This document shows positions 11,961 to 30,107 of a stretch of 30,107 nt of DNA, in pieces. Each line of letters starts with the position of its first letter. Within the stretch, counting starts at the first letter, position 1. Both the position numbers and the translations under genes were made by a program. This DNA is from a virus (Duplodnaviria > Heunggongvirae > Uroviricota > Caudoviricetes), in the IMG/VR virus record IMGVR_UViG_2698536535_000005, positions 1-30,107 of that record. One strand, given 5' to 3'. The notes under the pieces are model-generated. The model saw only the letters and a program-made list of their open reading frames with translations. It searched no databases and was not told the DNA's origin.

Positions 11961-11984
11961 TTAATGTTCAACGGGGGGGATTAG

Positions 11985-13608: not shown

Positions 13609-13615
13609 CGGCCGC

Positions 13616-13821
13616 AAAAAGTGTCAAGTTGAGCAGCTTGCCAGGTTGGCACTTTACACTCTGAACACGAAAAAGTGTCAACCTCGCTGTAAACCCTGCC
13701 ATTACTGGCCTTGAGCCATATTTACCACGCCAGAAACCCGTGAAAACCGCGAAAAGTGTCAAGTTGTCATGCTTAGAAATGCCAGGGTTTTTCGCGAAAA
13801 AGTGTCAAGTGTGTCAACCTG
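13616..13821. repeat. array of AAAAGTGTCAA boxes (putative protein-binding sites)
   Basis: Five GTGTCAA cores at 13621, 13675, 13756, 13803 and 13811, most preceded by an A-run, between the HTH gene and the next small ORF. Confidence 0.6.
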
Positions 13822-13850
13822 CGATATTAAGATTTCCTAAGGTGTAAACC

Positions 13851-14045
13851 ATGACCATCACCGAAGCCGATTTGCTGGATATAGTGCGCAGCGTGGCTGG
13901 AATTAGCGAATTGCCAAAGAAAGCCAGATTTGCCGATTATGCGGACGTGGTAGCTGCTGCAATGCAGCTAGAAGATCATGCTCCGAATGAAGGAGATTTG
14001 CTGCATATCCGCATCCGATCGGCGGCGATACTGGCAGCCCGTTGA
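13851..14045 (+). CDS. small hypothetical protein
   Basis: 64-aa ORF; weak support only. Confidence 0.3.
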   Translation: MTITEADLLDIVRSVAGISELPKKARFADYADVVAAAMQLEDHAPNEGDLLHIRIRSAAILAAR

Positions 14046-14399
14046 CGCCACCAGCATAGAGAGAACGCCGTGCCTTACGAGTGGAAGAAACCGGACATGC
14101 TGCGGCGATAACCCGTTGATTAAAAGACGGCTCAAAATTGAGCCGGGTAGCAGTTTGTCTGATTTATGCGTTTAGTTGTTGATATTGCCGATGACGAAAA
14201 ATTGCACTCTGTAGCTAGTGGGCGTTTATGTTGAAAACTGCCGATTCTGATAGGCTTTTATCATGCACTTGCATGAAAACTGCTCTGTGTAGCGGGCAGG
14301 CCTGCTGGGGAGAGCATTGCGCGCTTTAGTAGCAATAAAACACATCAATAAGGCTTTTTATTTTCTTGTATTATAAAATTATACTTATTATCTTGTTGA

Positions 14400-14429
14400 T
14401 TGACAGATAAAAACAAGGGATATGCATAA
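14400..14429 (+). promoter_or_regulatory. candidate sigma70 promoter for the 14433..16852 operon
   Basis: TTGACA (14400..14405), 18-bp spacer, CATAAT (14424..14429); so close to the ATG that either the transcript is near-leaderless or another promoter is used. Confidence 0.25.
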
Positions 14430-14432
14430 TAA

Positions 14433-15122
14433 ATGAACAAATCACCTACTGAGATAATTAATATGCTAAGCGATAAGTTCAATAGTAACTTTCGTGAATG
14501 GCAGGGCATACAAGATAAAAAATTAGATAAAGTAATTATCTCAATTTTCACTCTTAACACGATTGCTGAAATTTTGAATAAAAAGAAAACATCAGTTCAT
14601 CATGATGTTTGTATTAAAATTTTTAGTGAGATTATTGCTGATACGTCATCTTCTTTATATCTTTCTGCCTGTGCCATAGATAAACCAGCTAATATTGTTC
14701 TAAGGAGAGTTTTGGAACTAGGTGTCGCATCTATTTATCTTTGGGATATGCCTCATGTTGTATATTCTTGGAAAAATCATGATGAAGACTTAAGTTTCAG
14801 TGATATGTTGAAGCATATAACAAATCAAGGCTATATAGACTACTTCACAGAAAATGAGAAGATAGGAGGGAAAGTATGTGTTATTGATATGAGAAGAGCA
14901 CAGAAAATTTATGGACAATTAAGTGATATCGTTCATGGAAAAATAACCTCATTTGAAACTGATTTGCCTAATAAGTTCACTTTTGAAAGTGAAGATTGGG
15001 AGAGGTTCATAGGTCTGGCTGAGGTTGTTTTGGGTATGATAATTAATTCCAATATTGTTCGTCATAAGATAAGAAAAGAAGTGCTATCTTCATTTCCTAA
15101 ATCTAGTGAGGTAGTTTTATAA
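14433..15122 (+). CDS. hypothetical protein, component A of candidate two-gene system
   Basis: 229-aa ORF, strongly AT-rich; stop overlaps the start of the downstream ATPase gene (TAATG); no recognisable catalytic motif. Confidence 0.7.
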   Translation: MNKSPTEIINMLSDKFNSNFREWQGIQDKKLDKVIISIFTLNTIAEILNKKKTSVHHDVCIKIFSEIIADTSSSLYLSACAIDKPANIVLRRVLELGVASIYLWDMPHVVYSWKNHDEDLSFSDMLKHITNQGYIDYFTENEKIGGKVCVIDMRRAQKIYGQLSDIVHGKITSFETDLPNKFTFESEDWERFIGLAEVVLGMIINSNIVRHKIRKEVLSSFPKSSEVVL

Positions 15123-16852
15123 TGTCTATGTTAGACACTGAGTTATTACATGCAGCACGTACCGAAGATCTTGAGTTGAAACAGGTCAAACAACTGGCTG
15201 TTCTTGGTGAGTTTGAAAAAGATGTTGTAGCAAAACTAAAAATAGCGGGCTCTCATCTGATTCAGGGTGCCAGAGGAATTGGAAAGTCTATGCTTCTAAG
15301 AGCGGCAGAAGCTGAATTAGATAGTGATTTTCCTGTTAAAAAGATTGTGGGGGTATATGTTAATTTCAAAACCAGTACTTTGCTGGAAGGGGTTAAAGCT
15401 GACAATAAAAATGCATTTCAGATATGGGTAAGCGCTAAGTTACTACAAGCTTTGTACGAAAAGTTGATATTTTTAGATGTCATTCGTGACAATAATAGCA
15501 GTGATCCATTTCAAAGAATTTTTGGGATTAAAACTATAACTGGAATGAAAGATGCTCTACAATCTAAAATTCATCTGCTTCAAAGGTTATCAAGAGATCC
15601 TTCTTCAGATAAATTGTTGAATGAAATTGGAGAGGATTTTTTAGATAAGGTTAATGATATAAGTTATGTAAATGACATCATCAAGGAGATAATTCAAGAA
15701 TACCAACTTAATAGAATTGTTTTTTTATTTGATGAGGCTGCTCATACCTTTATACCAGAACAGCAGGAAATATTCTTCGAAATATTTAAATTGCTTCATG
15801 GCGGTAAAATTGCAGTTAAGGCGGCTGTATATCCGTCAATTACATCGTATGGTAAAAATTTTGAAGTTGGTCAAGATGCCATGATGATAAACCTCGGAGG
15901 ATACGAAACTGGAAATATTGGGCGGGAACGAACACGACGTTTATATCGTGATCTATTAGATAAACGGGTCACACAAGGAGCAGCAAAAAAGAGAATATTG
16001 GCTAAAGGTGATTTGCTAGATCAATGTATTCATCTTTCATCCGGAAACCCTAGAGCATTTCTCCATTTATTTAATAAAGTATATGAGAAAGGTTATACTG
16101 AAAGAGATCTTTTAACTTGCACTCAGGATTATGTCAATCAAGAATTATTACCTTATCATTTAGGGCTTTCAAAACGATTACCTAAGTATTCTCACCATGT
16201 TCGCATTGGACTTGATATTCTTAGGGAGTGTATTATCCCTGAGCTTAGATTGAAAAATAACAGAGAGAAAAAGACTCAAACCCAATCTGCTTTTTTTGTT
16301 CTTCCTCCCGTTATTTCTCCAAATCTTAGATTGTCTCTAGATTTGCTTTGTTATTCTGGTGTTCTTTCCAAGCAAGGGTCCGTGAAGATGTCTAATCGAA
16401 AATCGGGTCAGCGCTACATGGTTAATTTATCATTACTTTTCACTGAAAAAGCATTCGTATCTAATAAGTTCGGGGAGATAATAACACTATTATCTCTCGC
16501 TGATTATAAAGAATTTGGCGCAGCAGATTCTGAATTAGAGCGTTTTTTAGAAAAATTGAAAGAATCAGCTGATGAGTGTCAAACTTGTTCCGCTGAGTTA
16601 CCTGGAGATGCGAAGTTTTGTCCTAAGTGTGGGACACCTGTACCAACAAGGTCAATTGTAGGACAACTTCTTGATGATCCGGTTAGTTGCTTGTCAATTA
16701 GTAACGCAATATGCGACCGAATAAAAGAAACCTATCCTAAAGTGGGTGATATCGTTCACTGTTCGAGGGATGATCTGAAAAAAATACCGTACATTAAAAA
16801 TGTTAGGTCAAAAATAATCAAGAACGCAGCGGATGAATATATCTCAGGCTAA
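15122..16852 (+). CDS. Orc1/Cdc6-like AAA+ ATPase with C-terminal zinc ribbon and HhH (RNA polymerase alpha-CTD-like) domain, component B
   Basis: 576-aa ORF; Walker A GARGIGKS, Walker B IVFLFDEAAH, sensor-2-like SGNPRAF; C-terminal CQTC-x11-CPKC zinc ribbon; last ~60 aa resemble the RpoA alpha-CTD; GAGG Shine-Dalgarno; terminator downstream. Confidence 0.8.
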   Translation: MSMLDTELLHAARTEDLELKQVKQLAVLGEFEKDVVAKLKIAGSHLIQGARGIGKSMLLRAAEAELDSDFPVKKIVGVYVNFKTSTLLEGVKADNKNAFQIWVSAKLLQALYEKLIFLDVIRDNNSSDPFQRIFGIKTITGMKDALQSKIHLLQRLSRDPSSDKLLNEIGEDFLDKVNDISYVNDIIKEIIQEYQLNRIVFLFDEAAHTFIPEQQEIFFEIFKLLHGGKIAVKAAVYPSITSYGKNFEVGQDAMMINLGGYETGNIGRERTRRLYRDLLDKRVTQGAAKKRILAKGDLLDQCIHLSSGNPRAFLHLFNKVYEKGYTERDLLTCTQDYVNQELLPYHLGLSKRLPKYSHHVRIGLDILRECIIPELRLKNNREKKTQTQSAFFVLPPVISPNLRLSLDLLCYSGVLSKQGSVKMSNRKSGQRYMVNLSLLFTEKAFVSNKFGEIITLLSLADYKEFGAADSELERFLEKLKESADECQTCSAELPGDAKFCPKCGTPVPTRSIVGQLLDDPVSCLSISNAICDRIKETYPKVGDIVHCSRDDLKKIPYIKNVRSKIIKNAADEYISG

Positions 16853-16859
16853 AGAAAAG

Positions 16860-16883
16860 CCCCATGTAAATGGGGTTTTTTTT
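16860..16883 (+). terminator. intrinsic terminator
   Basis: CCCCAT-GTAA-ATGGGG hairpin (6-bp stem, 4-nt loop) followed by T8, 8 nt after the ATPase stop codon. Confidence 0.8.
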
Positions 16884-16892
16884 AATATGGGT

Positions 16893-17284
16893 TTATACTT
16901 TTAATGCCCGCCAATGCATTAATTCAATTCTTTGTATTAAATAATTAGATCTATTATAAGCTCTTCTGACTTCATTTCTATCAATATGAGATAATGACGT
17001 CTCTATTGCATCTGAATTAAACCCTGCTTCATTTAAAGTTTTACTCGCAATAGAACGCATCCCATGGTAACTAGCTTTCCACCGTAACCAATTCATTTAA
17101 GAGCAGCATTAGCCGTTTGACTATTCATTGGTTGCATAGGATCGTTTCTGCTAGGGAATACATATTCTCGATGACTACTAATAGGTTTCATCACATCCAG
17201 AAATTCTAATGCCTGTGGAAATAAATGAGCAATGTGTTTCCGGTTAGCCTTCATCCGTTCGGTGGGAATTGCGGAGGGCAGCAT
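16893..17284 (-). pseudogene. integrase remnant (C-terminal part of a P4-type tyrosine recombinase, frameshifted and 5'-truncated)
   Basis: Two adjacent minus-strand ORFs (16893..17096, 17093..17284) together align with the C-terminal ~130 aa of the integrase at 1611..2825 (FPSRNDP vs FPGRNDP; HIDRNEVRRAYNRSNYL vs HVDKNSIRGTYNHAQYL); no N-terminal half is present. Confidence 0.7.
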
Positions 17285-17680
17285 AAATGCAGAGGGAAAT
17301 CTGCAAATCCTAGGCTGGCCTTGCCATAAAGCGAAGACGGCGCGGGAGCATACAAGATGATAATTATTATTAGTAACAAAGGGGAGGGCGGGTCAAATCT
17401 CTGTACCCCTAGCTGTTCTGGACCGCCTGCCTCGTCAAATTTTTACACCCGCAAAATTAAAAAAAATACTTCACGCTGGTGGTTATCCTTGGGCATCCAC
17501 TAGCCTTTCATCATTGACTGCTGGTGAGGCTGAGACTCGAAGAAAAAGAGTGCTAGAGAGTCGGTTTTTGCACAGTTTGGGGTAAGGGAAAATTTATTGG
17601 GGGTACATTTGGGGGTATATATAAAAATGCAATGTAAAAATGTCATTAAATATCAATGCGATTGTTGTTTGTGTTTTGTT

Positions 17681-17696
17681 CCTATTATCGCACCAT
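17681..17696. repeat. attR core: degenerate direct repeat of the thrW 3' end
   Basis: CCTATTATCGCACCAT matches tRNA positions 1429..1445 (CCTATTATCGGCACCAT) except for one deleted G. Confidence 0.6.
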
Positions 17697-18302
17697 CAAG
17701 AAAATCAATAACTTAGCTTAACTTCTCTAAGAAATTGTATCTTCTGTTATCACTTACAAACGCCTATACGTTGTTATGGGCTTTGGTAGTGTAACACGTA
17801 TGGGCGAGTAGTTCCCAGGCTCAACCTCGTAACAAGTTCCTTTGAAGCTGGAAGACGTGCCACCGTCTCTAAACCTTCTACCAAAACTCTTAGCAAGATG
17901 TTCCACACCTGGCGCGGTGTCCAATGATGCTACACGTCGAGATGACGTCGCAGAGGATAAACAGGCTAAATGATGGGAAGAGTTTTAAGTGCAATAGTGG
18001 ATTAAAGCCCACCTCTTCAAAACCTAACTTGATCGGGAAAGAATCAAGCTCTAGCACGGTTTCGTCCACCGGAGTACAACGGGTGCCTGATAAGAGAAGA
18101 ACTGCTAAGACTTCATAGCTTTTGTGAAAAAGCCCTTTTTAGTGGATATGCCTACGGCGCTTATTTTTTGGTATAACCATCAAAGGCGCTTTATGGCTCC
18201 TATTGTCTTGAAAATGTATCTTTACTTGTATTGTGTTTTATGCGTAGTCTCCCTGTGTAGTATGTAACTTGTTAATTTTCATATGAATACAGAGGCAACA
18301 CG

Positions 18303-18455
18303 ATGAAAAACATTGCAGCTATAAAACGTAATAACCGCAAGATTCACGCTCGTAAGTTCCTGTCTACGCCAGAGGGAAAAGCCTGGCTAGAGCGTAAACA
18401 GCGAGAGAACGAAGAAAGAAAACTCCTTAGTGAGTTGAAATGGCTTAAGGATTGA
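18303..18455 (+). CDS. small basic hypothetical protein (50 aa)
   Basis: MKNIAAIKRNNRKIHARKFLSTPEGKAWLERKQRENEERKLLSELKWLKD; AGAGG Shine-Dalgarno 8 nt upstream; below the ORF-track cutoff. Confidence 0.25.
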   Translation: MKNIAAIKRNNRKIHARKFLSTPEGKAWLERKQRENEERKLLSELKWLKD

Positions 18456-19005
18456 ATCACCAGTAGGCGCATAACACATCCAGCAATCAAAGATGTGTTT
18501 GTGCGCCTGATAGTGAAATTATTAAAGTTTTTTAGTTAATGTAGCCATTGCATGAACGATGATCGCTAGTGAATCGATTTTATCTCGAGGGGTAAAATAG
18601 ATGAGGTATATGATGGTAACAATTACAGCTAAAGTAATTGTGGTTCTGCAGGTTTTTAAAATGGATAAGATAAAGCGCATAGATACCCCCTATTGATTTA
18701 ACAACAACAAGGTATCATTTATTTTTTATTGCATGCAATGTGCAAATTTTCACATATAATAGCTTACTATTCACTTTGCATGGTGTCAACAAGATGATGT
18801 GTTGTTTTGTTTGATTTGTTCAAGATAATATTTCATTTTCTCATCTATATAACTTGTGTTTTAGATAATTTCACTAATTGTAAAAGTTACGTATTGCTTA
18901 ATAGCTGCCTTTTTATCTGAAATCGGCGCAAACGTGATCAATGTTTAACGCGAAGATCAGCGGCGTCAGGTCCACGCAGCGACAATTCTCAAATATCAGG
19001 AGGCA

Positions 19006-19563
19006 TTACGCTTCCTGCTCTTTCTTGATACGTTGCACCGTCTGTGTGCTGACACTGAAATCTTTTGCTACGCTCCGAATTGATCCACCATTCGCGAGAG
19101 CGGCAACAATTCCCGCTCGATCAATTGCTTTTCCATTACCACGTTTTGCTATACGTCCAGCGGCCTTAGCTGCGGCAATCCCCTCACGTTGCCGCTCAAG
19201 CATCATTTCACGTTCCATTTGTGCCACTGCTGCAAGCACTGTGAGCATCATATTCCCTGCGGGAGAGTTCTTCCCTGTCTTAAAGTCTTCTTTATGGAAA
19301 TGCACAGACACGCCGCGCTCTGTTAATTGCTCAACCGTTGCCAGTAGGTCGGCTGTATTACGGCAAAGTCGATCAATGCTGTGAACATGCAAAACATCAC
19401 CTTCACGCACATAGTTCATCATTGCCTCAAACTGTGGGCGCTGGGTATTCTTGCCTGACGCTTTATCTTCAAAGACTTTATCAAGAGTTACTCCAGCTAA
19501 TTGACGGTCTGTGTTTTGTTGGACAGTCGATACCCTAATGTATCCAATATTAGCCATTTTCAT
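19006..19563 (-). CDS. serine recombinase (resolvase/invertase family)
   Basis: 185-aa protein; N-terminal catalytic motif GYIRVSTVQQNTDRQ with the nucleophilic Ser; small-recombinase length with C-terminal HTH-like region (GGSIRSVAKDFSVSTQTVQRI). Confidence 0.85.
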   Translation of the reverse strand: MKMANIGYIRVSTVQQNTDRQLAGVTLDKVFEDKASGKNTQRPQFEAMMNYVREGDVLHVHSIDRLCRNTADLLATVEQLTERGVSVHFHKEDFKTGKNSPAGNMMLTVLAAVAQMEREMMLERQREGIAAAKAAGRIAKRGNGKAIDRAGIVAALANGGSIRSVAKDFSVSTQTVQRIKKEQEA

Positions 19564-19584
19564 TTTCCTTCTGTGTTGATTTGT

Positions 19585-19688
19585 GTGTAGTGATTATTGA
19601 TCGTGTTGATTAGGTGTGTAAAGGACTTTTTTCACTACGAAATTCGAAGGTTTTTAGTGTGGTGATTTAGCCTGCTTTATCACTACAC
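19585..19688. promoter_or_regulatory. putative res/recombination site upstream of the serine recombinase
   Basis: Four related half-sites: GTGTAGTGA (19585..19593), TCACTAC (19632..19638, inverted), GTGTGGTGA (19657..19665), TCACTACAC (19680..19688, inverted). Confidence 0.4.
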
Positions 19689-20085
19689 GTCTTGCATGAG
19701 AATCATGTAGTTATGTTTTGGTAAAATTAGCAAGCTATTAAATAGCGTGTTTATTTTGAAAAAATTAATTTTTTCAACACGTGAAAGGAACTTGTTCGAC
19801 AAATAATAGATTGATTTTTAATCAACAATTTCTGATAGTGCTCTGTAAGCCACATTACACAAGGCGCAGCGAAAGTGATGTAAAAGTGAAGAAAGCTAAC
19901 ATTGCACTTTTAAGCTACTTTTCATTGAATTTTTAGTATGGAATTACATAGGGATTAATCATCAATTAATCTTGAATTTAAGCCTGTTTTAGATGTTTAA
20001 TTTTTGATAGCAAGAAACACTTTTAGAAGATCATTGCACAGATGTTATGTGATAAATGGATGTAACGGTAGGTCACTGTGAACTA

Positions 20086-20222
20086 CCCCCCACAGAATTC
20101 TGTTATCCTTAACTTTTAAAGAAATATGCACCCTAACAGAAAACTGTTACCCCAACCCTAACAGAATTATGTTAGACACCCCCACAGAAAACTGTTAGCC
20201 ACCCCTACAGAATTTTGTTACC
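20086..20222. repeat. five palindrome-containing iterons (consensus about CCCYAACAGAAWWCTGTTA)
   Basis: Units at about 20086, 20129, 20154, 20180 and 20203; the last four tandem with a ~24-bp period; each contains ACAGAAnnCTGT-type inverted repeat (ACAGAATTCTGT is a perfect palindrome). Confidence 0.7.
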
Positions 20223-20909
20223 TATTAGATCAACTATCAAACTACAATTAAATTATCTTTTATAAATTCTTTTATCTTTAAAGAATAATTATAGGGATAC
20301 CCGTTAGGGGAGTCTTCGACTATCCCTTAATCTATTGGCATTCGCCAGAACCTTGCACAAGTTAGAGTGTTAGTCGTTAGACTGCTTGTCATAACACATA
20401 GTTTTTTGTTTGTTGATGTTAGTTAGTAGATCTATGTTCGCTAATGCCGCTCACAACGAATATGTAATCTACTATGTGCAAATAGCCTACGGCTTGCGTA
20501 AGGCTAAATAGTCTTGCGCTGTGCGCAGAACGATAATTAACTAACTACCATCTAACGATCATCAATCTATTTAAGAGAAAATCTATTGTGCAATACTCTG
20601 ACGAGTGCAATAACCTTGTGTGCTACGCGTTAGCGATGTTAGCACATAGACACAGACAACAACCAACAACAAACAAAAAAGAATGGTTTTAGTAGTTGAA
20701 GGTTAAATAAGATTCTACCGCTTAAATCAAGCCGTAGGCGAGCTAAACAGCCATTACATAAGGGAATGTATTGTTTTTATCAAAACCTCGTTAGAACGCG
20801 TTTTAGAGCGTTTTAGACAATAATAAAGAATAGCACTACACATGAGAGCACGAATTGCTAAGAAATATCATAACTTACTGAAAATCATCAATATTTATAT
20901 GGATAGGGG

Positions 20910-20938
20910 TTGACAAAAGCTTTTAGTCGTGGTAAAGT
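20910..20938 (+). promoter_or_regulatory. candidate sigma70 promoter for the rightward small-gene operon
   Basis: TTGACA (20910..20915), 17-bp spacer, TAAAGT (20933..20938), about 120 nt upstream of the 21059 ATG, which has an AGGAGG Shine-Dalgarno. Confidence 0.4.
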
Positions 20939-21058
20939 AATATTAGGGACAGAAAACATTCTTATCCTCTAAGTAATTAAACCAATGCACCGCACTTTGA
21001 AGCCCAAGGCTTGCAAGGTGTCTTTTTCTTTTAACCAAATAGAATAGGAGGTTAATTA

Positions 21059-21259
21059 ATGAAGTATTACACTCCACAGGATGTAATCGAAGCCTGGAAA
21101 CGTGGTGAGATCAATCGTTTTAAAGTAAGGATGAACAGGAACACAGCGCGACGCTGTGGTTATCCAGAGCGTGAAAAATGCTTTGACGATGCACTAAAAA
21201 TTATTGATGAATTAAGAAAAAATGAAAAAGGATCTGAAAAAGAATCTGAAACAGAGTAA
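21059..21259 (+). CDS. small hypothetical protein
   Basis: 66-aa ORF with perfect AGGAGG Shine-Dalgarno. Confidence 0.5.
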   Translation: MKYYTPQDVIEAWKRGEINRFKVRMNRNTARRCGYPEREKCFDDALKIIDELRKNEKGSEKESETE

Positions 21260-21278
21260 AGAAGAGAAGGAGAAAACT

Positions 21279-21449
21279 ATGAGCGAAACTACAGAAAAGA
21301 AAAGACAACCACGCACTTGCTTTCATATTCCTGATGAAGTATTTCAGGTGTTGTTTAAAGAAGCCAGAAGTAAACGTATCACTGTTACAGATTACATTCT
21401 TGATATGTTGAAAAGAGAGGCTGAAACACTCTCAAACAAAAGCAAGTGA
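21279..21449 (+). CDS. ribbon-helix-helix-like small DNA-binding protein (tentative)
   Basis: Start taken at the ATG preceded by AAGGAG (track ORF starts 21222 and overlaps the upstream gene); segment RTCFHIPDEVFQVLFKEARSKRITVTDYILDMLKRE fits the RHH strand-helix-helix pattern. Confidence 0.45.
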   Translation: MSETTEKKRQPRTCFHIPDEVFQVLFKEARSKRITVTDYILDMLKREAETLSNKSK

Positions 21450-21502
21450 TTTTTATCACCATAGTAGCGCCGTAGAGCGTGATTACATCAAGGAGATTTT
21501 TA

Positions 21503-22072
21503 ATGATTAATGAAGAACAATTTGTAAAAGTTCCTATGTGGATTCTAAAAATAAGCCAAGTAAACGGGCATAAATTTACAGATAGTGCTAAAAACCTTTA
21601 CTGCTATTTGAGAGGGTTTGATCGTGCATTTCCCTCTTACGCTAAGATAGGCGATGTTTTTGGCATAACACCAAGAGCAGCAGAAGAAAGGGTTAAGAAA
21701 TTGCTCGAAATGGGATTAATTATAAAAGATGCACGACCAGGAAGCTCTAACCTTTATCGAGTGCTTGATATTCCAAAAGGAGAATCATCACTACCTGATC
21801 CTTCTGAGAAAGAAGACGAATCTAATGAAATATTGAATGTTTCCGAAATCATCGTTGAAGAAGAAACACAGGAATCAGAGTTCCCTGAGCGGCCCGAAAT
21901 TTTTACTTGGCTTCTTTCCCTTGATAAGAAGAAACCACCGCACGAAGAAACAGAAGATTTTGTAAAACGTGCATTAGATTCAAAGAATATCTATCTTGAG
22001 AAACAGGCTTTTCACGATCTGATAATATCTCTAAGAGAAAAAAGTGAAATATACGATTCAATACCATTCTAA
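21503..22072 (+). CDS. winged-helix/HTH protein with acidic C-terminal region (possible replication initiator or regulator)
   Basis: Start at the ATG preceded by AGGAG (track ORF starts 21479); N-terminal PMWILK...NLYCYLRGF...IGDVFGITPRAAEERVKKLLEMGLI is HTH-like; acidic tail. Confidence 0.5.
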   Translation: MINEEQFVKVPMWILKISQVNGHKFTDSAKNLYCYLRGFDRAFPSYAKIGDVFGITPRAAEERVKKLLEMGLIIKDARPGSSNLYRVLDIPKGESSLPDPSEKEDESNEILNVSEIIVEEETQESEFPERPEIFTWLLSLDKKKPPHEETEDFVKRALDSKNIYLEKQAFHDLIISLREKSEIYDSIPF

Positions 22073-22081
22073 GGAGAATAA

Positions 22082-22351
22082 ATGACTTATAACATCACTA
22101 TAGGAAACAAAACTATTGAAATAACTGAAAGCGGATACAACATTTTAAAAGCTATTTTGGACATAGAGTTCTCACCCCCGACAGTGGTTAGCTTTTGTAG
22201 TTTAGGCGGCTACAGCGCACAACATGTGAATCATTGGTTAAACCATTTTACATCGTTCGGTGTGCTGGATTATGAAGGGATTAACCACACTACATTTCGT
22301 CTTTTGAAATTAAACAAAGATTTTGAATTGTTTATCACAAACAATCAATAA
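22082..22351 (+). CDS. hypothetical protein
   Basis: 89-aa ORF with AAGGAG Shine-Dalgarno. Confidence 0.5.
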   Translation: MTYNITIGNKTIEITESGYNILKAILDIEFSPPTVVSFCSLGGYSAQHVNHWLNHFTSFGVLDYEGINHTTFRLLKLNKDFELFITNNQ

Positions 22352-22447
22352 CAACAGATCGGGCAATACATATGGCAAATGCATTTATGGCGATATTCAT
22401 CGTAACAATGGTATCAAGTTTTTATAATCCACATAAAAAGAAGGAAA

Positions 22448-22831
22448 ATGGGAAGAAAGAAAAAGAACAACTTAAAACGTATTGAAAAAAACAGTAACTT
22501 CAATTCAACAAGACAACGTCCACCGACACACACCAATAACGAAATTCCAGGGGAAGAGATAATATTTATTCTTGAAACAGAATCCCCTGAATTAAGCGAT
22601 GAAGAACAAGAAATAATCAAATCAATGCCAGGCGTTTACTTTCGCCCAAGAACAAGAAAACAAACAATAATTTCTGATGGCACTCTGAAACGTTGGCAGC
22701 TTTTAGGGTTTAGCTCCTATCATCATTTTTTGGGATTTAACGCTTTCAATAATTGTGTAGGTGGTGCATCGGAAGTCGATCTGATGGCTCATTTAGAAGA
22801 TACATTAGCTTCTAACAAACGCTCTAACTAA
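22448..22831 (+). CDS. hypothetical protein
   Basis: 127-aa ORF with AAGGAA Shine-Dalgarno; basic N-terminus. Confidence 0.5.
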   Translation: MGRKKKNNLKRIEKNSNFNSTRQRPPTHTNNEIPGEEIIFILETESPELSDEEQEIIKSMPGVYFRPRTRKQTIISDGTLKRWQLLGFSSYHHFLGFNAFNNCVGGASEVDLMAHLEDTLASNKRSN

Positions 22832-22846
22832 TAAAAGGATGGTCGT

Positions 22847-23092
22847 ATGTATAAGCGCCCAATGAAAATATTCGAAAAAGGAAAAATAATGATTGGCTAT
22901 ATTCAAGAAACACAATTATTTCAGATGATCCTGTCTGATGCAAAAAACTATGCTGAGTTAATCCGACTGGCAAAAGAAACAGAAGACTACGAAGCATTAG
23001 AGCGTTATCGTGATGAAGTGCTGACGCTCAAGACACCTTTTAACATCGTATTGAATATGATTAATGATGCATTACAAGGAGAAGCCGCATAA
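22847..23092 (+). CDS. hypothetical protein
   Basis: 81-aa ORF with AAGGA Shine-Dalgarno. Confidence 0.45.
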   Translation: MYKRPMKIFEKGKIMIGYIQETQLFQMILSDAKNYAELIRLAKETEDYEALERYRDEVLTLKTPFNIVLNMINDALQGEAA

Positions 23093-23403
23093 TGGAAGAA
23101 GATATTAGCAATGCAATGGAACAACTTTTAGATCTGACTATCTCACTACAAACAAGAATAAATCAAGCCTATTCAGATTTATGCGATTACACGCTCTCTC
23201 AATGCGTTATTAGCTTAATGAAGGTGAATGTAAGCCTTGACGATTTTATCTCTCTGGTGAGCGATTTAGAGCTAATTGAGGACGATGCCAAGATGTGCAC
23301 TCAAACCATCACAGACACCGCCAGCACGTTAAAGGCTGCAAGTGAAGAGATTCAGCAATTAGTAGATGATTTAGCAAAAAGTGCTATTCCCTCTAAATGG
23401 TAA
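23092..23403 (+). CDS. hypothetical acidic helical protein
   Basis: 103-aa ORF; start overlaps the previous stop (TAATG). Confidence 0.45.
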   Translation: MEEDISNAMEQLLDLTISLQTRINQAYSDLCDYTLSQCVISLMKVNVSLDDFISLVSDLELIEDDAKMCTQTITDTASTLKAASEEIQQLVDDLAKSAIPSKW

Positions 23404-24391
23404 TGAAAATCATTTGCATTTATATAATAAAAATGTTATATTAGTATTAAGGGTAGATAAAAAGGTTTTGACTGGTGTTAATCCTTCTACTGTCATAAAT
23501 CCCTGCATATGGAAGGTGATAGCCTCAAGGGTTGAGTGGCATTAACCTCTAACAAATATTACCTTCCATCTCTCAAGAAGTTTTAGAATAATCATAACTC
23601 CCTCTTTGATTGTTGATTGTTTCTACGTTGTGTTGATGAATGTTGTTAGGCATTGTGCTTAATTTTGATAAAAGCGGGTAGGTGTTATCTCCTTGCCCTT
23701 CCCGCTCTTATTTTTCATCTATGCTTATCCTAAAGCTCCTTATTTTGTCCGAAAACATTAAAGAGCCTTACACTGATAGTTATATTTTATAACTATTTAC
23801 TAACATCATTAAACTCTTATTTAATGACAGAAGTTAGTAACAGAATAATCTATTAAGTTGTTGTCAAAAAACTATCATCTGCATAGCGTTAGCCGCAAGC
23901 AGAGAGAGTTTAGCTAAGAATTGTGCAATAACCTTTGGAAATATTGATAGCAAAACGGGTTTTATAGACTGCAAATCTATAATCTTTGGTTGTAAAAACG
24001 CTTTTTCTGAAACGGTAGATTATTGTTGGTGTAGTTAATCCCTATTAAAATTTAATCTGTGAGTAGATTGGAATAGTGATTCCTTAAAATCTGACTGGTG
24101 CATCCACACCATGAAAGATAGCGGTTAGCCACCGCACCCGAATAGATATTCCTGATTGATTCCGCATGTTTTCCTAAGAGCATGTTTTCAGGAATATCTG
24201 TTCACCCTTTAAACCTATCTTTAAGCATGTTTAATAAGCATTCTTAGAGATACGTTTAAAACCTCCTCAAGGTTTTACTTATCGCTGTGTATTGCCCGAC
24301 ACGTTAATAAATCCCCCTCGCTATTCTCAGATTGAACCTCTTATAGCCTGGGGGATTTATTAAATTCCAACATAATGGAATCGTTATATAA

Positions 24392-24601
24392 ATGAAACAA
24401 GAAATTATCCTGAAATATGGCAATGAAAAGTTAACACTAACTGAAGATGTGTTGAATGCTACAGCCTACGCGCTTGGTATCACTCCCACAGAATTAAAGA
24501 AACAGTGTGAACGTCTTTATAAGGCTGAAAGCAATAAACCATCTCACCAAGATTTGATTAATGCTAAAGCTCAACAAATCAAACAATCTAAGGAAAAATA
24601 A
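24392..24601 (+). CDS. small hypothetical protein
   Basis: 69-aa ORF; stop overlaps the start of the next gene. Confidence 0.4.
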   Translation: MKQEIILKYGNEKLTLTEDVLNATAYALGITPTELKKQCERLYKAESNKPSHQDLINAKAQQIKQSKEK

Positions 24602-24975
24602 TGGCTATTTTAAAATTAAGCGATGTTTTCCTACATCGTAAAAGCATCACTGACGTAGTGAGCTATGCAACCGACCCTTACGCGGCTGTAGAAAGCAAAA
24701 AATTTGCAGCACTTGCACAAGATGTAACGTGCGGCGACCTCATTGATTCATCCGGCGCTAAATATGTTAGCGGCGCTGATGTTCTTGTCGTTGTGTCTGA
24801 CTTCGTAACTGCTGATTCAAATAAAACAGTTAACGTGCTTCGTGCTAATGCCGGACTCGTTTGCATCAAAGCTGATGCCCTGAATGCCGAAGGCGCTGTA
24901 AAAGAAGCTGCTATTGCAGCTCTCGCTGCTAAAGGCTTCCAGCTTGAAGGCTTCCACTCTGTTTTCACATCTTAA
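24601..24975 (+). CDS. hypothetical protein, possible virion decoration or scaffold-type protein (speculative)
   Basis: 124-aa ORF immediately upstream of a ~340-aa gene, the lambda D-E type arrangement; Ala/Val-rich; no direct motif evidence. Confidence 0.5.
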   Translation: MAILKLSDVFLHRKSITDVVSYATDPYAAVESKKFAALAQDVTCGDLIDSSGAKYVSGADVLVVVSDFVTADSNKTVNVLRANAGLVCIKADALNAEGAVKEAAIAALAAKGFQLEGFHSVFTS

Positions 24976-24991
24976 GAAGGAATAAATAATA

Positions 24992-26020
24992 ATGATTATC
25001 GGAAATGAAGTGGTTGATCTTGCTCCACTGTTCGAATTAAACGACTCACGCAATTACCTACTGTCTACTCTGGATTTTACTGATCCTGTGCCTGTAGAAA
25101 GTCACAAAGTGGCTGTTTCCCAGCTTATCGAGAGCAATGAATCTCTGTTCAACCATCCTACAAGCCGTTTTAGCTCTGAGCATAACGTTACTAAGCGTGA
25201 GAACGGGGAAGAATATCTTATTGAAATCCCGTACTTTTTAAGGGAAGACCTGATCAAACCGCAGGACGTGCAAGGCAAACGCAAAGCCGGAAGCTCTATT
25301 GAAGAAACACTGCCGGATCTGTATGCGGAATATATCGCTAAACACAATGTTGCATTCCAGCGCACTAAAGAAAGCATCCTCGCGGCTTCTCTGTTCTCTG
25401 GCAAGACACACACCCCGAAAACTGACGATGTTCTGATCGATTACAGCACTCTGTTCGGTGTGTCTCCAATGACTGCAACCGTTGACGCATCCAGCACCAA
25501 CACAATGACCGTATTCAAGCAATTTGATCAGATGCATACGGATATGATTGCTAAGGCACAAAGCCAGGCTGCAACCATTGAGCGTGTTGTTGTGTTCTGT
25601 AAACCTGCGGCATTCAACGCTATTCGTTACAGCGTTGGCATGGTTAATGCGTTCCAGTATGCAAGCCCTGTAGACGATGCAAACGTGGTGTTTAATGTGC
25701 GTTCTCTGCTGCCTGGTGTAACTACTTTCACCATTCCAGGAACTAACATTGACCTGATCAAAGTGACTGATCCGCTGCTGCTGGCACATATGACCGCTGA
25801 CGCTGTAGCTATTCCTAAACTTGCTAAGGGGGCAGGTGTTTACCAAGCTATTTTTGGTGCGCCTTCCAGTTCATTCGATCTGCTGTCTCAAGGCGCTAAA
25901 GAGTATTACAGCTATGCTTTCGAATCGAATCGCGGCGACGCAGTGCACGTAGTGACCGAGAATAGCTCGCTTGTGGTTAACCACGGTGTTGGCTTCTCTG
26001 TGCAGATCACAGTAGCGTAA
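24992..26020 (+). CDS. hypothetical protein, possible major capsid-like protein (speculative)
   Basis: 342-aa ORF with strong AAGGAA Shine-Dalgarno; size and position after a ~120-aa gene resemble the lambda gpD/gpE arrangement; similarity to gpE not demonstrable by eye. Confidence 0.55.
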   Translation: MIIGNEVVDLAPLFELNDSRNYLLSTLDFTDPVPVESHKVAVSQLIESNESLFNHPTSRFSSEHNVTKRENGEEYLIEIPYFLREDLIKPQDVQGKRKAGSSIEETLPDLYAEYIAKHNVAFQRTKESILAASLFSGKTHTPKTDDVLIDYSTLFGVSPMTATVDASSTNTMTVFKQFDQMHTDMIAKAQSQAATIERVVVFCKPAAFNAIRYSVGMVNAFQYASPVDDANVVFNVRSLLPGVTTFTIPGTNIDLIKVTDPLLLAHMTADAVAIPKLAKGAGVYQAIFGAPSSSFDLLSQGAKEYYSYAFESNRGDAVHVVTENSSLVVNHGVGFSVQITVA

Positions 26021-26172
26021 AAAGTGTTAAAGACGTTCCCCTACGTCTGGAAATAATCGGGGCAATAAGGGTAAGGGATAATCATATAAGCAAAATATGC
26101 GCTGTCTCTTGCCCTTTTTGTTTTTCTACTGTCTACAAACCTAAATAAAAATATATATGTGAGAGAAAACCA

Positions 26173-26370
26173 ATGAACACAGAAAATTCACAGGCATTAA
26201 TTCTTAAATCTGTAAAAGAACTGGCAGCTATTAGCGATGACTCAATAATCAATGTCAGTGCCTTATGCAGAATGCTTTCAATTGATGCAAATAATGTGCG
26301 TCAGCGTGTCTTTCAGACTGGATGTAGCACTTTCGAAGCAATCCAATATTATTGCTCTAAAAAACAATAA
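26173..26370 (+). CDS. small hypothetical protein
   Basis: 65-aa ORF between two larger genes on the same strand. Confidence 0.4.
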   Translation: MNTENSQALILKSVKELAAISDDSIINVSALCRMLSIDANNVRQRVFQTGCSTFEAIQYYCSKKQ

Positions 26371-26404
26371 CAAATAACAATCATAATACAGGGAAACAAT
26401 TAAC

Positions 26405-28246
26405 ATGTTAGAGCTAAACGTGGCACGCCTCTCGAACGTTGTCACCTTCGAAGTTAACCGACCATCATTAGAGAAAGCAAAAGCAGAAGTAGAAAAACTT
26501 CGTAAACAAATGGCGGCGGTGAAAGATATAGAATTGCGTGTTAAGACACATAAACAATCAACCGCTAAAGCAAAAAAAGACGTAGACGATATTGCTAAAA
26601 AGCAAGCACAGGCTGATAAAGCTAATGCTAAAGCACAATTAGCCGCTCAACGTGTAGTTGCAAGAGAACAAAAAGCCCTGGCAGCACGCAAAGAGAAGGC
26701 AGAATTAAAGCTTTTAGACGTTGGAGCAAGCATTAGTGCAATGCACCGTCTTTCTGTAGCGGAACAATATAAAGCTATTGCACAGGCTAGAGAAATTGCC
26801 CTCCAATATGAAAGAGGCGCTATTAGTCTGGCACGTATGAATAGCCAAATGAAACGCCTACAACAGCAACAACGTAAGATTAATGGCAATCGTAACGCTC
26901 ACGCTAAAGCCTATGCACCTGTTAAGGGTAGCGGGAGTATTGGCGGCGGTGCTGCGGCTGTTATGCTGGGTGGCTTAGGCGCTGGCGCTACGTATATGGC
27001 TATGAGCAAAGCCTCTGAATTTGTTACTAACAGCTTTGCGAATGCTGAAACGCTGGGTGAATTGTATAGCCGTGCGAAGCTGGGCGGTGTAGACGTTAAC
27101 CAGATGAACAATATTGAGCAATGGGCCTACAAAAACGGCGTTGATTCAATGATGGGCGAACAAGGTCGTAGGAAGTATCTCGATCAGATGAAAGATGTAC
27201 GGGAGAAGGCTACTAAATCTTATGATGAGGCTGAATATGTAGTTGATAAGAAAACTGGTAAAGGAGAATGGAAGGGCGGCGATAGCGGCATCAATACTTT
27301 AATGAATGAAGGATTCCTAACTAAAAAGGATCTAAAAGACTTTGCTGATAATCCGGCTGGTCTGGTTAGTAAAGCAGTTCAGGGAATGGTAGCTAAAGGC
27401 TATTCAGATGCACAAATCGGTAGTCGTCTGGAAGATCTGGCTGATGATTTGATGCTCACCTCTAAATACTGGACACGCTCCGCTAAAGAAGTGGAACAAT
27501 CAGCACGAGAACAACGAGAATCAGGGCGCTGGGTAACGCAGGCACAACAGGAAAGCGTTATTAAATTCCGTGAACTGAATAATGCACTTAGTGGGCTTTC
27601 TGACTCACAAGGGATCGCCTTTGTTGATGGCTTTATGAAATCTCTTGATCCGAAAGTGATTGAAGAGTTTAAAAAGAGCATGGTTGCAATGCTGCCAATG
27701 TTTACCAAATTAGGCGAGGCTATCGGCGGATTGGTTAACGCCGTAATGAAAACAATCAACTGGCTGATGAAAAACGACGAGAAGACGGAAGCTATTCAGA
27801 AGAATTTAGGGGATGCACCGCCACTATCTAACGAAGGAATGAAGCAGAATCTTTCTAATCTCACTCCTGATCAATATAAAGGCGCTGGCACCGGAACAAC
27901 TAAGCCAGATAACAGCAATTCCCTGGTTAACACTATTAAAAGCTGGTTTATGCCAGAAGAAACGGTAGGTGGGGCGCAGGCTGTAAATCAATACAGTCTC
28001 GAAGGACAAAATATTGCAAATCTGAAACAGAGTGCAGCACAACAAGCTTTCAAGGCTCCTTCTTACACCTTTGCACCTGTTATTAACTTCAATCCAGAAT
28101 TACAAGTAAATGCAGAAGTGCCGCTAACTATCGAATCAGACACCGGACGATTGAGCGAATTTATCGACTTCAAATCAAAGGCATCTTCCGCTGAGTTTAG
28201 CAAGCTATTAACGCTGGGTGTTATGTCAGGCGGGTCAACCTATTAA
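26405..28246 (+). CDS. large coiled-coil protein with Gly-rich hydrophobic segment (tape-measure-like or internal virion-like; function unknown)
   Basis: 613-aa ORF; N-terminal ~130 aa Lys/Ala-rich coiled coil; GSGSIGGGAAAVMLGGLGAGATYMAM hydrophobic Gly-rich segment; no enzymatic motif. Confidence 0.6.
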   Translation: MLELNVARLSNVVTFEVNRPSLEKAKAEVEKLRKQMAAVKDIELRVKTHKQSTAKAKKDVDDIAKKQAQADKANAKAQLAAQRVVAREQKALAARKEKAELKLLDVGASISAMHRLSVAEQYKAIAQAREIALQYERGAISLARMNSQMKRLQQQQRKINGNRNAHAKAYAPVKGSGSIGGGAAAVMLGGLGAGATYMAMSKASEFVTNSFANAETLGELYSRAKLGGVDVNQMNNIEQWAYKNGVDSMMGEQGRRKYLDQMKDVREKATKSYDEAEYVVDKKTGKGEWKGGDSGINTLMNEGFLTKKDLKDFADNPAGLVSKAVQGMVAKGYSDAQIGSRLEDLADDLMLTSKYWTRSAKEVEQSAREQRESGRWVTQAQQESVIKFRELNNALSGLSDSQGIAFVDGFMKSLDPKVIEEFKKSMVAMLPMFTKLGEAIGGLVNAVMKTINWLMKNDEKTEAIQKNLGDAPPLSNEGMKQNLSNLTPDQYKGAGTGTTKPDNSNSLVNTIKSWFMPEETVGGAQAVNQYSLEGQNIANLKQSAAQQAFKAPSYTFAPVINFNPELQVNAEVPLTIESDTGRLSEFIDFKSKASSAEFSKLLTLGVMSGGSTY

Positions 28247-28293
28247 TCATCACTGTGGGGCGGTTTAGCCCCCTTAAATAAGGATTACAAATT

Positions 28294-28971
28294 ATGGCAA
28301 TGGGTCCGTTAACCATTGGTCGCCCGACTGAGGCGAAAATCAACAGCACAAGCAACGATAGCAACGGTAGAACAACTAAAGGGGGTAACGGCTTTGCGAT
28401 CATTACCTCTAACCTCGGCAGTGGTGCAAATGCTGCTTACAATGACTACCAGGCATTATCATTTGATAGCGTGGAATCGACGAAAATTAGCCGAAATGCA
28501 GACGTTACAAGCTATGCCGTCGAATCAGGATCAGAAGTTAGTGATCATGTTCAAATACGGAATAACAAGTTCACATTACAGGGGCGTATCTCTGAAACAG
28601 TATTGAAGCTCAATCCCGATATGATTAAGAATGCGGGAATTAACGGCAATAGACGTATGCTTATGCTTGAATACCTAAATCAGTTGATGGACAGTCGCCA
28701 ACCTTTCCTACTTGTCACTGAGTTAAAAAATTATGACAACGTTGTGTTAGTTGGCATGTCTTACGAAGAAGAAGCAAGCGAAAGCCTATTGTTTACTCTT
28801 GATTTTGAGCAAATCCGTCTTGTCTCTAAAGCAACTACAAGCGCAATTGCGGTAAAAACAGCACCAAATAAATCTGTAGGAGGTCAGGTTAAAATGCAGG
28901 TAAATACAACAGAACAGAAAAATCAAAAAAGCCCAGGGCAAGACGTTGTAACGCCAGTATTTAAACAATAG
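28294..28971 (+). CDS. hypothetical protein
   Basis: 225-aa ORF with AAGGA Shine-Dalgarno; convergent with the downstream integrase. Confidence 0.55.
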   Translation: MAMGPLTIGRPTEAKINSTSNDSNGRTTKGGNGFAIITSNLGSGANAAYNDYQALSFDSVESTKISRNADVTSYAVESGSEVSDHVQIRNNKFTLQGRISETVLKLNPDMIKNAGINGNRRMLMLEYLNQLMDSRQPFLLVTELKNYDNVVLVGMSYEEEASESLLFTLDFEQIRLVSKATTSAIAVKTAPNKSVGGQVKMQVNTTEQKNQKSPGQDVVTPVFKQ

Positions 28972-29012
28972 CCTTAAACACCTATGAAACGCTCTGTAAC
29001 GAGATAATCATA

Positions 29013-29044
29013 AAAGAGGCATTAGTCTATATTGAAGCCTCTTT
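29013..29044. terminator. possible bidirectional terminator hairpin between convergent genes
   Basis: AAAGAGGC/GCCTCTTT 8-bp stem with a 16-nt loop; weak T tail; low support. Confidence 0.25.
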
Positions 29045-29051
29045 ATTACGT

Positions 29052-30050
29052 CTATAGCGTTGTTTTACGCCTTAAATTTGATTTTTTATTGATTGATAAG
29101 CCTTTCTCTATTTCAGGGTAGCGTAAAAGCTCAATATATTTTTTAAGCTCTACTGGAGAAGCTGCATTCTTGCTATATGTGCGGAATGTTTCTGTATTGC
29201 CGCGCTGATGGCCCAAAATTAAAGCTATGCGGTCCTCTGGAATTTGATTTCGATCAAGAAGCTGTGCTACTCCGTGTCTCAGAGAATGAAACACTTTCCT
29301 TTCTGTTCCCTTTTCCCCTAAAGCCTTTCGTTTAGCTCTTGTAAATCGTTGTGTATGCCACGTAGAGCGTTTACCGTCAGCACGTTCTGTAATGCTGGCG
29401 TGATAGAACAAAAAGCCATTGTGAGGCTTTTCACGAAGAGATAACACCAATGGAGTGATAAGGCTATGCACAGGCACAAGACGTGCCGCAGCTTTCGTTT
29501 TTCCCTGTGTGATTTCAAAACACAGCACACCTTCGATCTCTTTCACATCGTCTATTGTGAGACTTGCTATCTCATTGATCCGCATACCTGTATATAAACC
29601 GATAAGACACAAAGCCGTCATTTCTTTGTTTTCTGCTGAATTACCGGAAAATACTTGCAACACCTGCAATAGCTCTTTGTTAGAAAATGCCTCGTAGCTC
29701 TCTCTACTTTGTGCCACATCAAGCCTATGCCCTCGCCAGGGGGAGAGCGCCCTTTCTGGCGCATCGTGGTAACGTGATGAAGCTAATTCCCATAGCTGGG
29801 CCATTGGGCTGATATAATTTGCAATTGATTGTTGTGAAAGAGTTTTTTGCATATGTTCAATCCAGCCTGTAACAGTGGTGCGGCTTACATCTTGCAATGC
29901 AATATCAGGCTTTTTACGGTAGGAGAGAAACATCTCTACCGCTTTTCTTGCCTTAGCTAAAGTGGCTGGCTTCTTCTTCGTGCTGTTAATTGTCAGGTAG
30001 ATTTCAAGAATTTTAAGCAATGACGGACACGAAGACGCTGTATCTTGCAT
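29052..30050 (-). CDS. tyrosine recombinase / phage integrase (different family from the thrW-proximal integrase)
   Basis: 332-aa minus-strand ORF; C-terminal catalytic region with HSLRHGVAQLL (H-x-x-R) and a downstream tyrosine; lacks the long P4-type N-terminal arm-binding domain. Confidence 0.85.
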   Translation of the reverse strand: MQDTASSCPSLLKILEIYLTINSTKKKPATLAKARKAVEMFLSYRKKPDIALQDVSRTTVTGWIEHMQKTLSQQSIANYISPMAQLWELASSRYHDAPERALSPWRGHRLDVAQSRESYEAFSNKELLQVLQVFSGNSAENKEMTALCLIGLYTGMRINEIASLTIDDVKEIEGVLCFEITQGKTKAAARLVPVHSLITPLVLSLREKPHNGFLFYHASITERADGKRSTWHTQRFTRAKRKALGEKGTERKVFHSLRHGVAQLLDRNQIPEDRIALILGHQRGNTETFRTYSKNAASPVELKKYIELLRYPEIEKGLSINKKSNLRRKTTL

Positions 30051-30107
30051 TCTGGTAGCTGTTTTGGCGTATTTAGCCTTACTGCGTAACTGAACCGCCC
30101 CGGGTTT

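Follow-up and report, generated by a model that had tools for sequence, protein, structure and literature searches.

The nuclease Odn of the cholera phage ICP1 joins the DNA-binding domain of RepA, the replication initiator of the phage-inducible chromosomal island (PICI)-like elements (PLEs), to a T5orf172 nuclease of the GIY-YIG superfamily, and the PLE iterons are required for cutting (PMC8263062). Here, an operon of seven small genes at positions 21059-23403 of a 30,107-nt stretch of DNA (the window; IMG/VR virus record IMGVR_UViG_2698536535_000005) is compared with this and other systems. The operon sits in a ~12.6-kb satellite-like island of Escherichia coli, which extends from 17680 to beyond the window end and whose size was taken from the tRNA-to-integrase span in the related locus L002. 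With moderate confidence, the operon is read as the early regulation and replication module of the island, the initiator and iterons of which would be the target of Odn-like phage nucleases. The sharing of sequences between phages and islands suggests an arms race like that known only from ICP1 and PLE.

The iterons on which an initial annotation of the window had relied do exist: CCCnnACAGAAnnnTGTTA recurs five times, with dyad symmetry in every copy and spacings of 44, 25, 23 and 23 nt, and an AT-rich stretch that is a candidate DNA-unwinding element adjoins these copies. The iterons had been placed next to the genes, whereas they are actually 0.84 kb from gene 1 and 1.3 kb from gene 3, upstream of both. 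In an alignment of homologues, the shared C-terminal parts of the gene 3 protein are joined to N-terminal domains of five or more types (A to E) that look unrelated, and the N-terminal type matches the iteron type in 11 of 11 loci, namely type A with iteron ACAGAAnnnTGTTA (the window, L002, L003 and L007), type B with GGAAnTGnnTTCC (L005 and L012), type C with GTAACGnnnCGTTAC (L001 and L006), type D with TAGGTCAnnGTGAnCTA (L022) and type E with CCCTATCAnnnnTGATA (L013 and L014). In islands with other gene 3 types the iteron cassette is swapped exactly between conserved flanks, and in L013 and L022 the iterons likewise stand beside an AT-rich stretch. No other evidence for binding of the repeats by gene 3 is as strong as this covariation over 1.3 kb.

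Covariation of domain and site would be expected of any specific DNA-binding protein, and gene 3 could instead be a transcription factor with the repeats as operators, or an enhancer-like array, for the operon or the recombinase gene. The winged helix alone is recognisable in gene 3, its Foldseek matches are MarR/ArsR repressors, and the repeats are palindromic, operator-like and located between two divergent transcription units. This alternative nevertheless appears rather unlikely, as the hidden Markov model (HMM) similarity of gene 3 is to phage replication initiators and not to repressors, and four to seven tandem sites with ~23-nt spacing, beside an AT-rich stretch and 0.7 kb from the promoter, are origin-like. 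Moreover, the island holds no other candidate replicon, and the recombinase, the repeats and genes 1-3 occur together in L014, an unrelated 8-kb island without late genes, as a replicon module would. The layout of ori-lambda consists of iterons plus an AT-rich region, and it is this likeness, together with the initiator-like homology, the want of another replicon and the module in L014, for which the repeats are read as an origin and gene 3 as the putative origin-binding initiator of the island.

In the gene 3 protein, an acidic disordered linker (aa ~90-126) connects an N-terminal type-A winged helix (1-~90) to a three-helix C-terminal domain (130-180), and the C-terminal tip reads ...EIYDSIPF. 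The winged-helix assignment of the initial annotation was supported by PHROG matches (phrog_270 'replication initiation protein' at 1.2e-8, three O-like families at 1e-5 to 1e-4), by a sub-threshold Pfam HTH_36 match, by the H-H-H-beta-beta secondary structure of an AlphaFold2 (AF2) model with a helix-helix-helix-wing unit at aa 27-87, and by Foldseek, which returned generic winged helices only (MarR/ArsR). The RefSeq name for gene 3 in some genomes, 'LexA family transcriptional regulator', is backed by no profile. All three C-terminal variants terminate in IPF (EIYDSIPF, YEDFDIPF and QSTIPF), and the tip of the E. coli single-stranded DNA-binding protein (SSB) is DFDDDIPF. A phmmer search of the C-terminal peptide against PDB gave no match, and the first 50 kb of phage Mt1B1_P17 contained no open reading frame (ORF) with a similar IPF tip.

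Gene 3 sequences recur in a few phages as parts of chimeric nuclease genes. The segment 21462-21816, which consists of a 41-nt leader and gene 3 codons 1-105, is 99.2% identical in nucleotides to Mt1B1_P17 and 94.7% to BI-EHEC, and no other match was found among 50,697 phage records, even at the protein level. The Mt1B1_P17 protein QNJ49226 (328 aa) is composed of the type-A domain (aa 1-105, 99% identical to gene 3), a second winged helix 93% identical in nucleotides to the type-B gene 3 domain of other islands, and a probable C-terminal nuclease domain. This last domain matched phrog_681 'endonuclease' (2.4e-18) and the Pfam family MUG113 of the GIY-YIG clan (4.4e-4), and its tblastn matches were a T5 endonuclease and annotated GIY-YIG or homing endonuclease genes (1e-13 to 4e-6). 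Mt1B1_P17 and BI-EHEC belong to Phapecoctavirus and two further phages, inny and muut, to Justusliebigvirus, all within Stephanstirmvirinae. The layout is A-B-nuclease in Mt1B1_P17 and BI-EHEC, C-B-nuclease in inny (inny_184) and E-B-nuclease in muut (gp094), with 93-100% nucleotide identity between the chimera domains and island genes. The N-terminal domain of muut (307 nt) was first known from muut only; 64 E. coli genomes matched it at 95-100%, and these matches lie within island gene 3 homologues (up to 100% identical) at loci with the fifth iteron type, so that the type-E domain was found in islands as the model predicts.

Ordinary homing endonucleases that acquired DNA-binding modules, or islands that borrowed modules from phages, might account for the chimeras with no bearing on antagonism or on the origin. 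Homing endonucleases of the GIY-YIG and T5orf172 kinds have a modular build and are frequent in large lytic phages (cf. PMC10448857), and the direction of transfer is unreadable from the sequences. Such an explanation is judged improbable, since four phages carry, by our count, four different combinations of island-type domains and always the same nuclease, and the cognate sites are clustered in islands with none in the phage DNA examined. In addition, inny and muut also took island type-2 gene 2 and the intergenic spacer upstream of the chimera, which indicates that at least there the DNA moved from island to phage. The nuclease gene is a ~1-kb insertion absent from most of the 86 related phage records that share both flanks. 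The best phage matches of the island capsid and tape-measure-like proteins, with 25% and 30% identity, are likewise in Stephanstirmvirinae.

Against an initiator and origin attacked by phage nucleases, several points have to be weighed. Gene 3 is short, its AF2 model is poor (predicted local distance difference test, pLDDT, 55), and its HTH_36 match (6e-4, 19.9 bits) falls below the 25-bit gathering cut-off. The palindromic iterons could equally be operators, and the IPF tip is a three-residue motif without statistical support. On the phage side, the MUG113 match (21.2 bits) is just under the 22.3-bit cut-off and PF10544 gave no match, the capsid and tape-measure-like proteins reach only 25-30% identity to those of the proposed helpers, and the iteron motif is absent from the 50 kb of phage genome examined, which gives no sign of a target of the phage protein's own and is also uninformative. 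In the operon itself, five of the seven products are without an assignable function, and a hairpin in its leader showed no compensatory changes among eight loci. Binding, replication, induction and packaging are inferred from sequence, as are the identity of the helper, the targeting of the nuclease and recruitment by the IPF tip.

The island is a small integrative element with an integrase and an attachment (att) site and without a full set of virion, packaging and lysis genes, as a satellite is. Comparison of its ORFs with Pfam and PHROGs revealed no terminase, portal, protease, lysis, helicase or primase gene. The missing terminase, portal, protease and lysis genes, together with insertion sequence (IS) insertions, deletions or frameshifts in some copies, would also suit a decaying prophage remnant with the operon as its leftover early region and no helper-dependent cycle. 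That is very unlikely, given that hundreds of genomes keep the same compact gene order, with ~60-99% protein identity, across three tRNA sites, that most early genes are under purifying selection and that the modules are shuffled rather than eroded; the very recent DNA exchange with virulent phages (99-100% nucleotide identity) argues further that the island is active in infected cells.

The family appears to be widespread. A 3.3-kb region was matched in 707 of 5426 complete E. coli genomes (~13%), some genomes hold two or three island copies, and the architecture recurs at tRNA-Thr, tRNA-Gly and tRNA-Ser sites with reshuffled modules. Searching 185,579 GTDB species genomes with the gene 5 profile located the family in Escherichia only. 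The searchable literature, which excludes most subscription journals, yielded no account of an E. coli element of this kind, none of the phage chimeras and no paper tying satellites to Stephanstirmvirinae or Phapecoctavirus. The small cryptic prophages at thrW in O157 strains (CP-933H, Sp1/Sp2) may belong to the family.

The following mechanism is proposed. Transcription would start from the sigma-70 promoter, run past the terminator-like hairpin and reach gene 1. The N-terminal winged helix of gene 3 would bind, probably as dimers, the five dyad-symmetric iterons beside the AT-rich stretch, and its acidic C-terminal part with the SSB-like ...IPF tip might recruit host or helper replication proteins, which is proposed since neither a helicase nor a primase is encoded in the island. 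Gene 2 is probably a small regulator of the ribbon-helix-helix (RHH) type, gene 4 a possible winged-helix partner of the gene 3 C-terminal domain, and the family-specific genes 1, 5, 6 and 7 are candidates for late-gene activation or helper interference. The likely helpers and antagonists are virulent Stephanstirmvirinae myoviruses, some of which carry the accessory chimera; with its two initiator domains and GIY-YIG-clan nuclease, this would steer cleavage to the origins of satellites, in the manner of ICP1 Odn on PLE. A bolder version is put forward tentatively, at somewhat less than even chances: the islands may be undescribed, Escherichia-restricted satellites of virulent ~150-kb Stephanstirmvirinae, with at least five initiator and iteron specificities diversifying under double-headed nucleases and with SSB-tip mimicry recruiting the replisome.

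Features of the window that bear on the operon and its island
Feature	Position	Strand	Details
tRNA-Thr(CGT)	1369-1444		
Left att core	17680-17697	+	CCTATTATCGCACCA-like degenerate copy of the tRNA-Thr 3' end; homology to L002 begins here
Basic ORF, MKNIAAIKRNNRK...	18303-18455		50 aa; near left att site
Serine recombinase, resolvase/invertase type	19006-19563	-	Divergent from operon; Pfam Resolvase 1e-38; PHROG DNA invertase 2e-62
Iteron array	20067-20223	+	D-type remnant 20067-20087, then five type-A iterons, CCCnnACAGAAnnnTGTTA, 20085-20223
AT-rich stretch	20224-20295	+	Candidate DNA-unwinding element; adjoins iterons
Sigma-70-type promoter	20910-20938	+	TTGACA-17-TGgTAAAGT (extended -10 TG)
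Leader hairpin, then U-tract CUUUUUCUUUU	20992-21032	+	13 bp, -15.5 kcal/mol; between promoter and gene 1 ribosome-binding site
Gene 1	21059-21259	+	66 aa
Gene 2	21279-21449	+	56 aa
Gene 3	21503-22072	+	189 aa
Gene 4	22082-22351	+	89 aa
Gene 5	22448-22831	+	127 aa
Gene 6	22847 (alternative) or 22889 (RefSeq start)-23092	+	81 or 67 aa
Gene 7	23092-23403	+	103 aa
Late module	24392-28971	+	69-aa, 124-aa, major capsid, 65-aa, 613-aa tape-measure-like and 225-aa Dit-like proteins
Major capsid protein, lambda-E-type	24992-26020	+	Pfam Phage_cap_E 6e-18
Island tyrosine integrase	29049-30107	-	Outward-placed; truncated by window end; RefSeq annotation of L002 plus offset

The seven genes are real. The identical seven same-strand genes are annotated by RefSeq in a 99.7% identical locus of the E. 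coli chromosome CAU16175, where all seven products are hypothetical proteins. The region has a GC content of 35-37%, against ~50% in the flanking chromosome. Ratios of nonsynonymous to synonymous change (pN/pS), computed against diverged copies with small change counts, were about 0.0-0.6 for genes 1, 4, 5 and 6 (mostly 0.05-0.4, with a single 0.62 for gene 4 and a range of 0-0.37 for gene 1) and mostly 0.17-0.55 for gene 3, with one comparison at 0.80; gene 7 (0.4-1.3, from very few changes) is less clear than the others. The compactness noted in the initial annotation holds, with a coding fraction of 0.90, but the genes do not overlap often: the gaps are 19, 53, 9, 96, 57 (15 with the long form of gene 6) and -1 nt, and genes 6 and 7, with the junction TAATG, are the sole overlapping pair.

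Strong ribosome-binding sites had been ascribed to all seven genes, and genes 1-4 and 7 bear this out with duplex energies to the anti-Shine-Dalgarno (SD) sequence of -8.5 to -10.9 kcal/mol, in the top 1-4% of the 609 ATGs in the window; that of gene 1 is AGGAGG at 21046-21051. The site of gene 5 is moderate (-4.8 kcal/mol) and that of gene 6 depends on its start (-5.6 kcal/mol at 22889 vs -8.5 kcal/mol at 22847). The upstream start of gene 6 is favoured by the stronger SD, by natural fusions of genes 5 and 6 and by protein similarity in L006 upstream of the annotated start.

The near-consensus promoter described before the genes is well founded: in TTGACA-17-TAAAGT with TGn, the -35 element is invariant in 10 related loci that otherwise diverge by up to ~20%, and the -10 element has two promoter-compatible forms, TAAAGT and AATAAT. 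Promoter-like sites were not enriched in the AT-rich region (12 found vs 17.6 expected), so the promoter is supported by conservation and not by the scan. The leader hairpin, with an invariant stem and a variable loop in eight loci and a fold z of -2.0, looks like a terminator or attenuator, in which case the operon would need read-through.

Of the regulator/initiator pair suggested in the initial annotation, the initiator half is upheld by the covariation in 11 loci and the O-like homology, and the RHH regulator half is weakly backed. Gene 2 matched an Arc-like PHROG at E 0.011, and its strand/helix/helix pattern is in register with Arc residues 7-39, with an hhalign E of 0.01 and a probability of 4% against Arc; no Pfam RHH match and nothing significant in a PDB profile search were found. 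By its sequence pattern it is a probable RHH protein, of type 1 in the family. Gene 2 occurs in two types of 44% identity that do not track the gene 3 types, it is absent from type-B islands and thus dispensable, and distant relatives carry other small RHH-looking genes in its slot.

The initial annotation had considered anti-defence or helper-interference factors among the other five products. No convincing match was obtained for genes 1, 4, 5, 6 and 7 in Pfam, PHROGs, NCBIfam or PADLOC or, for genes 1 and 4, in PDB profile searches, and PADLOC and NCBIfam gave no match for any of the seven proteins. Gene 1 is conserved family-wide (36-90% identity), and its profile matched the Ku70 SAP domain in PDB at E 0.0018, a weak SAP/HeH-like DNA-binding lead only. 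Gene 4 has a winged-helix-like sequence pattern only, with no significant family or PDB match; its type switches together with the gene 3 C-terminal type, possibly through linkage, as the two genes are adjacent. Among the early proteins of the family, that of gene 5 is conserved most widely; it has a basic N-terminus and is 31-36% identical in distant islands whose capsid protein is 59% identical. An HMM search with gene 5 over 1.84 billion proteins returned 30 unannotated small representatives and one spurious repetitive tail-fibre protein, and its AF2 model has a pLDDT of 55. Gene 6 is a helical orphan and gene 7 an acidic helical orphan, and in distant islands a single 119-121-aa helical protein replaces both.

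In the proteins P0161 and P0162, the N-terminal half of gene 5 is naturally fused in frame to gene 6, with the junction in the upstream part of gene 6; the fusions apparently arose via deletion between the similar sequences ...YFRP and ...YKRP. The RefSeq labels 'ABC transporter ATPase' and 'transporter' on gene 6/7 homologues (in annotations including L003, L001, H11 and H20) are without HMM support. In L024 (JAEWTL010000083.1), a 9.4-kb contig of a 'Bacillota bacterium' metagenome-assembled genome, the gene 5 protein is 98% identical to that of E. coli, and the contig is probably a binning contaminant.

Further variation was seen around the iterons. L007 carries three arrays at 8432-8890 (seven type E, three type D and five to six type A iterons) with a gene 3 of type A only, and the extra arrays may be relics of cassette exchange or a response to the initiators of co-resident islands. 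The window has one copy (20576-20748) of a ~173-bp unit containing AAGCCGTAGGCGAGCTAAAC, of which L002 (20176-20520), L005, L006 and L001 each have two. Interleaved inverted repeats at 20338-20739 raised the candidate of an invertible promoter switch operated by the adjacent serine recombinase, which was rejected because no inversion was seen among the loci; the only variation there is the copy number of the ~173-bp unit.

The serine recombinase, possibly acting in multimer resolution, is present in most islands and absent from L007, and 1.5 kb without ORFs separates it from the operon. Near the left att site, the 50-aa ORF shows conservation far above that of its neighbours, with 96-100% identity across all E. 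coli islands and 78% in a distant relative, and it has no family match. Downstream of gene 7, a 1-kb ORF-free spacer (23404-24391) leads to the late genes and ends, just upstream of the first of them, in a 21-nt inverted repeat of 90% complementarity (24304-24324/24343-24363), a possible terminator, packaging site or control site of a late promoter. An Rfam search of 17300-30107 (E <= 1) gave no match, so no non-coding RNA was found in the long spacers. In the late module, the 225-aa protein matched Pfam Dit_like (2e-27) and the 613-aa protein the PHROG tape measure (6e-31). L005 (13060-14091) and L001 (21155-22186) have, in place of the capsid gene and its upstream partner, a gene for a 343-aa protein without a Pfam match that aligns end-to-end with the window capsid (20% identity, pairwise E 4e-4), and would represent a second, very divergent capsid module.

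In L002, the island directly abuts tRNA-Thr. The same arrangement in the window is ruled out by a separate ~16-kb P4-like island (1446-17679) between tRNA-Thr and the studied island, so that two satellite-like elements stand in tandem at thrW. The P4-like island contains an integrase (1611-2825), AntA, a D5-type primase-helicase (7640-9445) and ProQ/FinO, and at 14433-16852 a pair of genes for 229-aa and 576-aa proteins; the pair features an ORC/Cdc6-like ATPase and zinc ribbons and is possibly defence cargo. Elsewhere, the ~8-kb island of L014 (NZ_CP134376.1, 1783654-1803995; locus 3301-11438) combines another integrase with the recombinase, type-E iterons and genes 1-3; its insertion site is the thiM leader, and a thiamine pyrophosphate (TPP) riboswitch is therefore annotated on both sides. 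L001, on plasmid NZ_CP126938.1, is an IS3-riddled copy next to sopAB on an IncF conjugative plasmid of avian pathogenic E. coli (APEC) and the sole plasmid-borne copy among 806 places.

If the proposal is true, it would add another natural anti-satellite system of the Odn type, the second in all and the first beyond Vibrio ICP1/PLE, and a satellite family present in ~13% of complete genomes of E. coli, the best genetic system available. The satellite would target large lytic phages used in therapy cocktails, and an Odn-like arms race would be legible from the way in which initiator, iteron and nuclease specificities match. It would become testable how general origin-directed nucleases are, how DNA-binding specificity evolves and how a satellite without helicase or primase replicates. 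For annotation, the RefSeq names 'transporter', 'ABC transporter ATPase' and 'LexA family regulator' for these genes are unsupported.

Among known systems, gene 2 resembles the Arc/Mnt/CopG RHH repressors in size (56 aa) and in its strand/helix/helix pattern, a similarity that is statistically insecure. The replication module is similar to lambda O and ori-lambda in that O-like PHROGs match the gene 3 N-terminal domain and four to five dyad-symmetric iterons stand by an AT-rich region. Unlike lambda O, the candidate origin lies 1.3 kb upstream of the gene and not within it, the C-terminal half is unrelated, acidic and IPF-ending, and the island has no lambda-P-like loader gene.

Like the capsid-forming PICIs (cf-PICIs), for example EcCIEDL933, the island is an E. 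coli chromosomal island with an integrase, its own major capsid gene and an incomplete virion set. Unlike PICIs and cf-PICIs, it showed no portal, protease, small terminase, head-tail connector, AlpA or Pri-Rep in Pfam and PHROG scans and does not classify with them; it also differs from cf-PICIs in its tape-measure-like and Dit-like tail genes and in a likely helper that is a virulent myovirus. With P4-like satellites it shares integration at a tRNA, a size of 11-16 kb and the host E. coli. Unlike P4, it has neither an alpha primase-helicase nor Sid/Psu/Delta-type genes according to the same scans, which sets it outside that group, and its replication module would consist of a small initiator and iterons.

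The closest counterpart is PLE. As with PLE RepA, a satellite initiator is paired with a short array of semi-palindromic iterons (PMC8263062), to which binding is predicted here, and in both cases the satellites diversify their replicon types. The initiator differs in being a winged helix of the HTH_36/lambda-O-like kind, unlike RepA of the RepA_N family. As with ICP1 Odn, a lytic phage carries a sporadic chimeric gene that combines an initiator DNA-binding domain with a nuclease, here a putative one, of the GIY-YIG superfamily. Different from Odn, the phage proteins hold two different captured domains in tandem, and the identity between phage and satellite is 93-100% in nucleotides against 42% in amino acids for Odn. 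PLE and ICP1 are a system of Vibrio cholerae, whereas the host here is E. coli and the phages are Stephanstirmvirinae.

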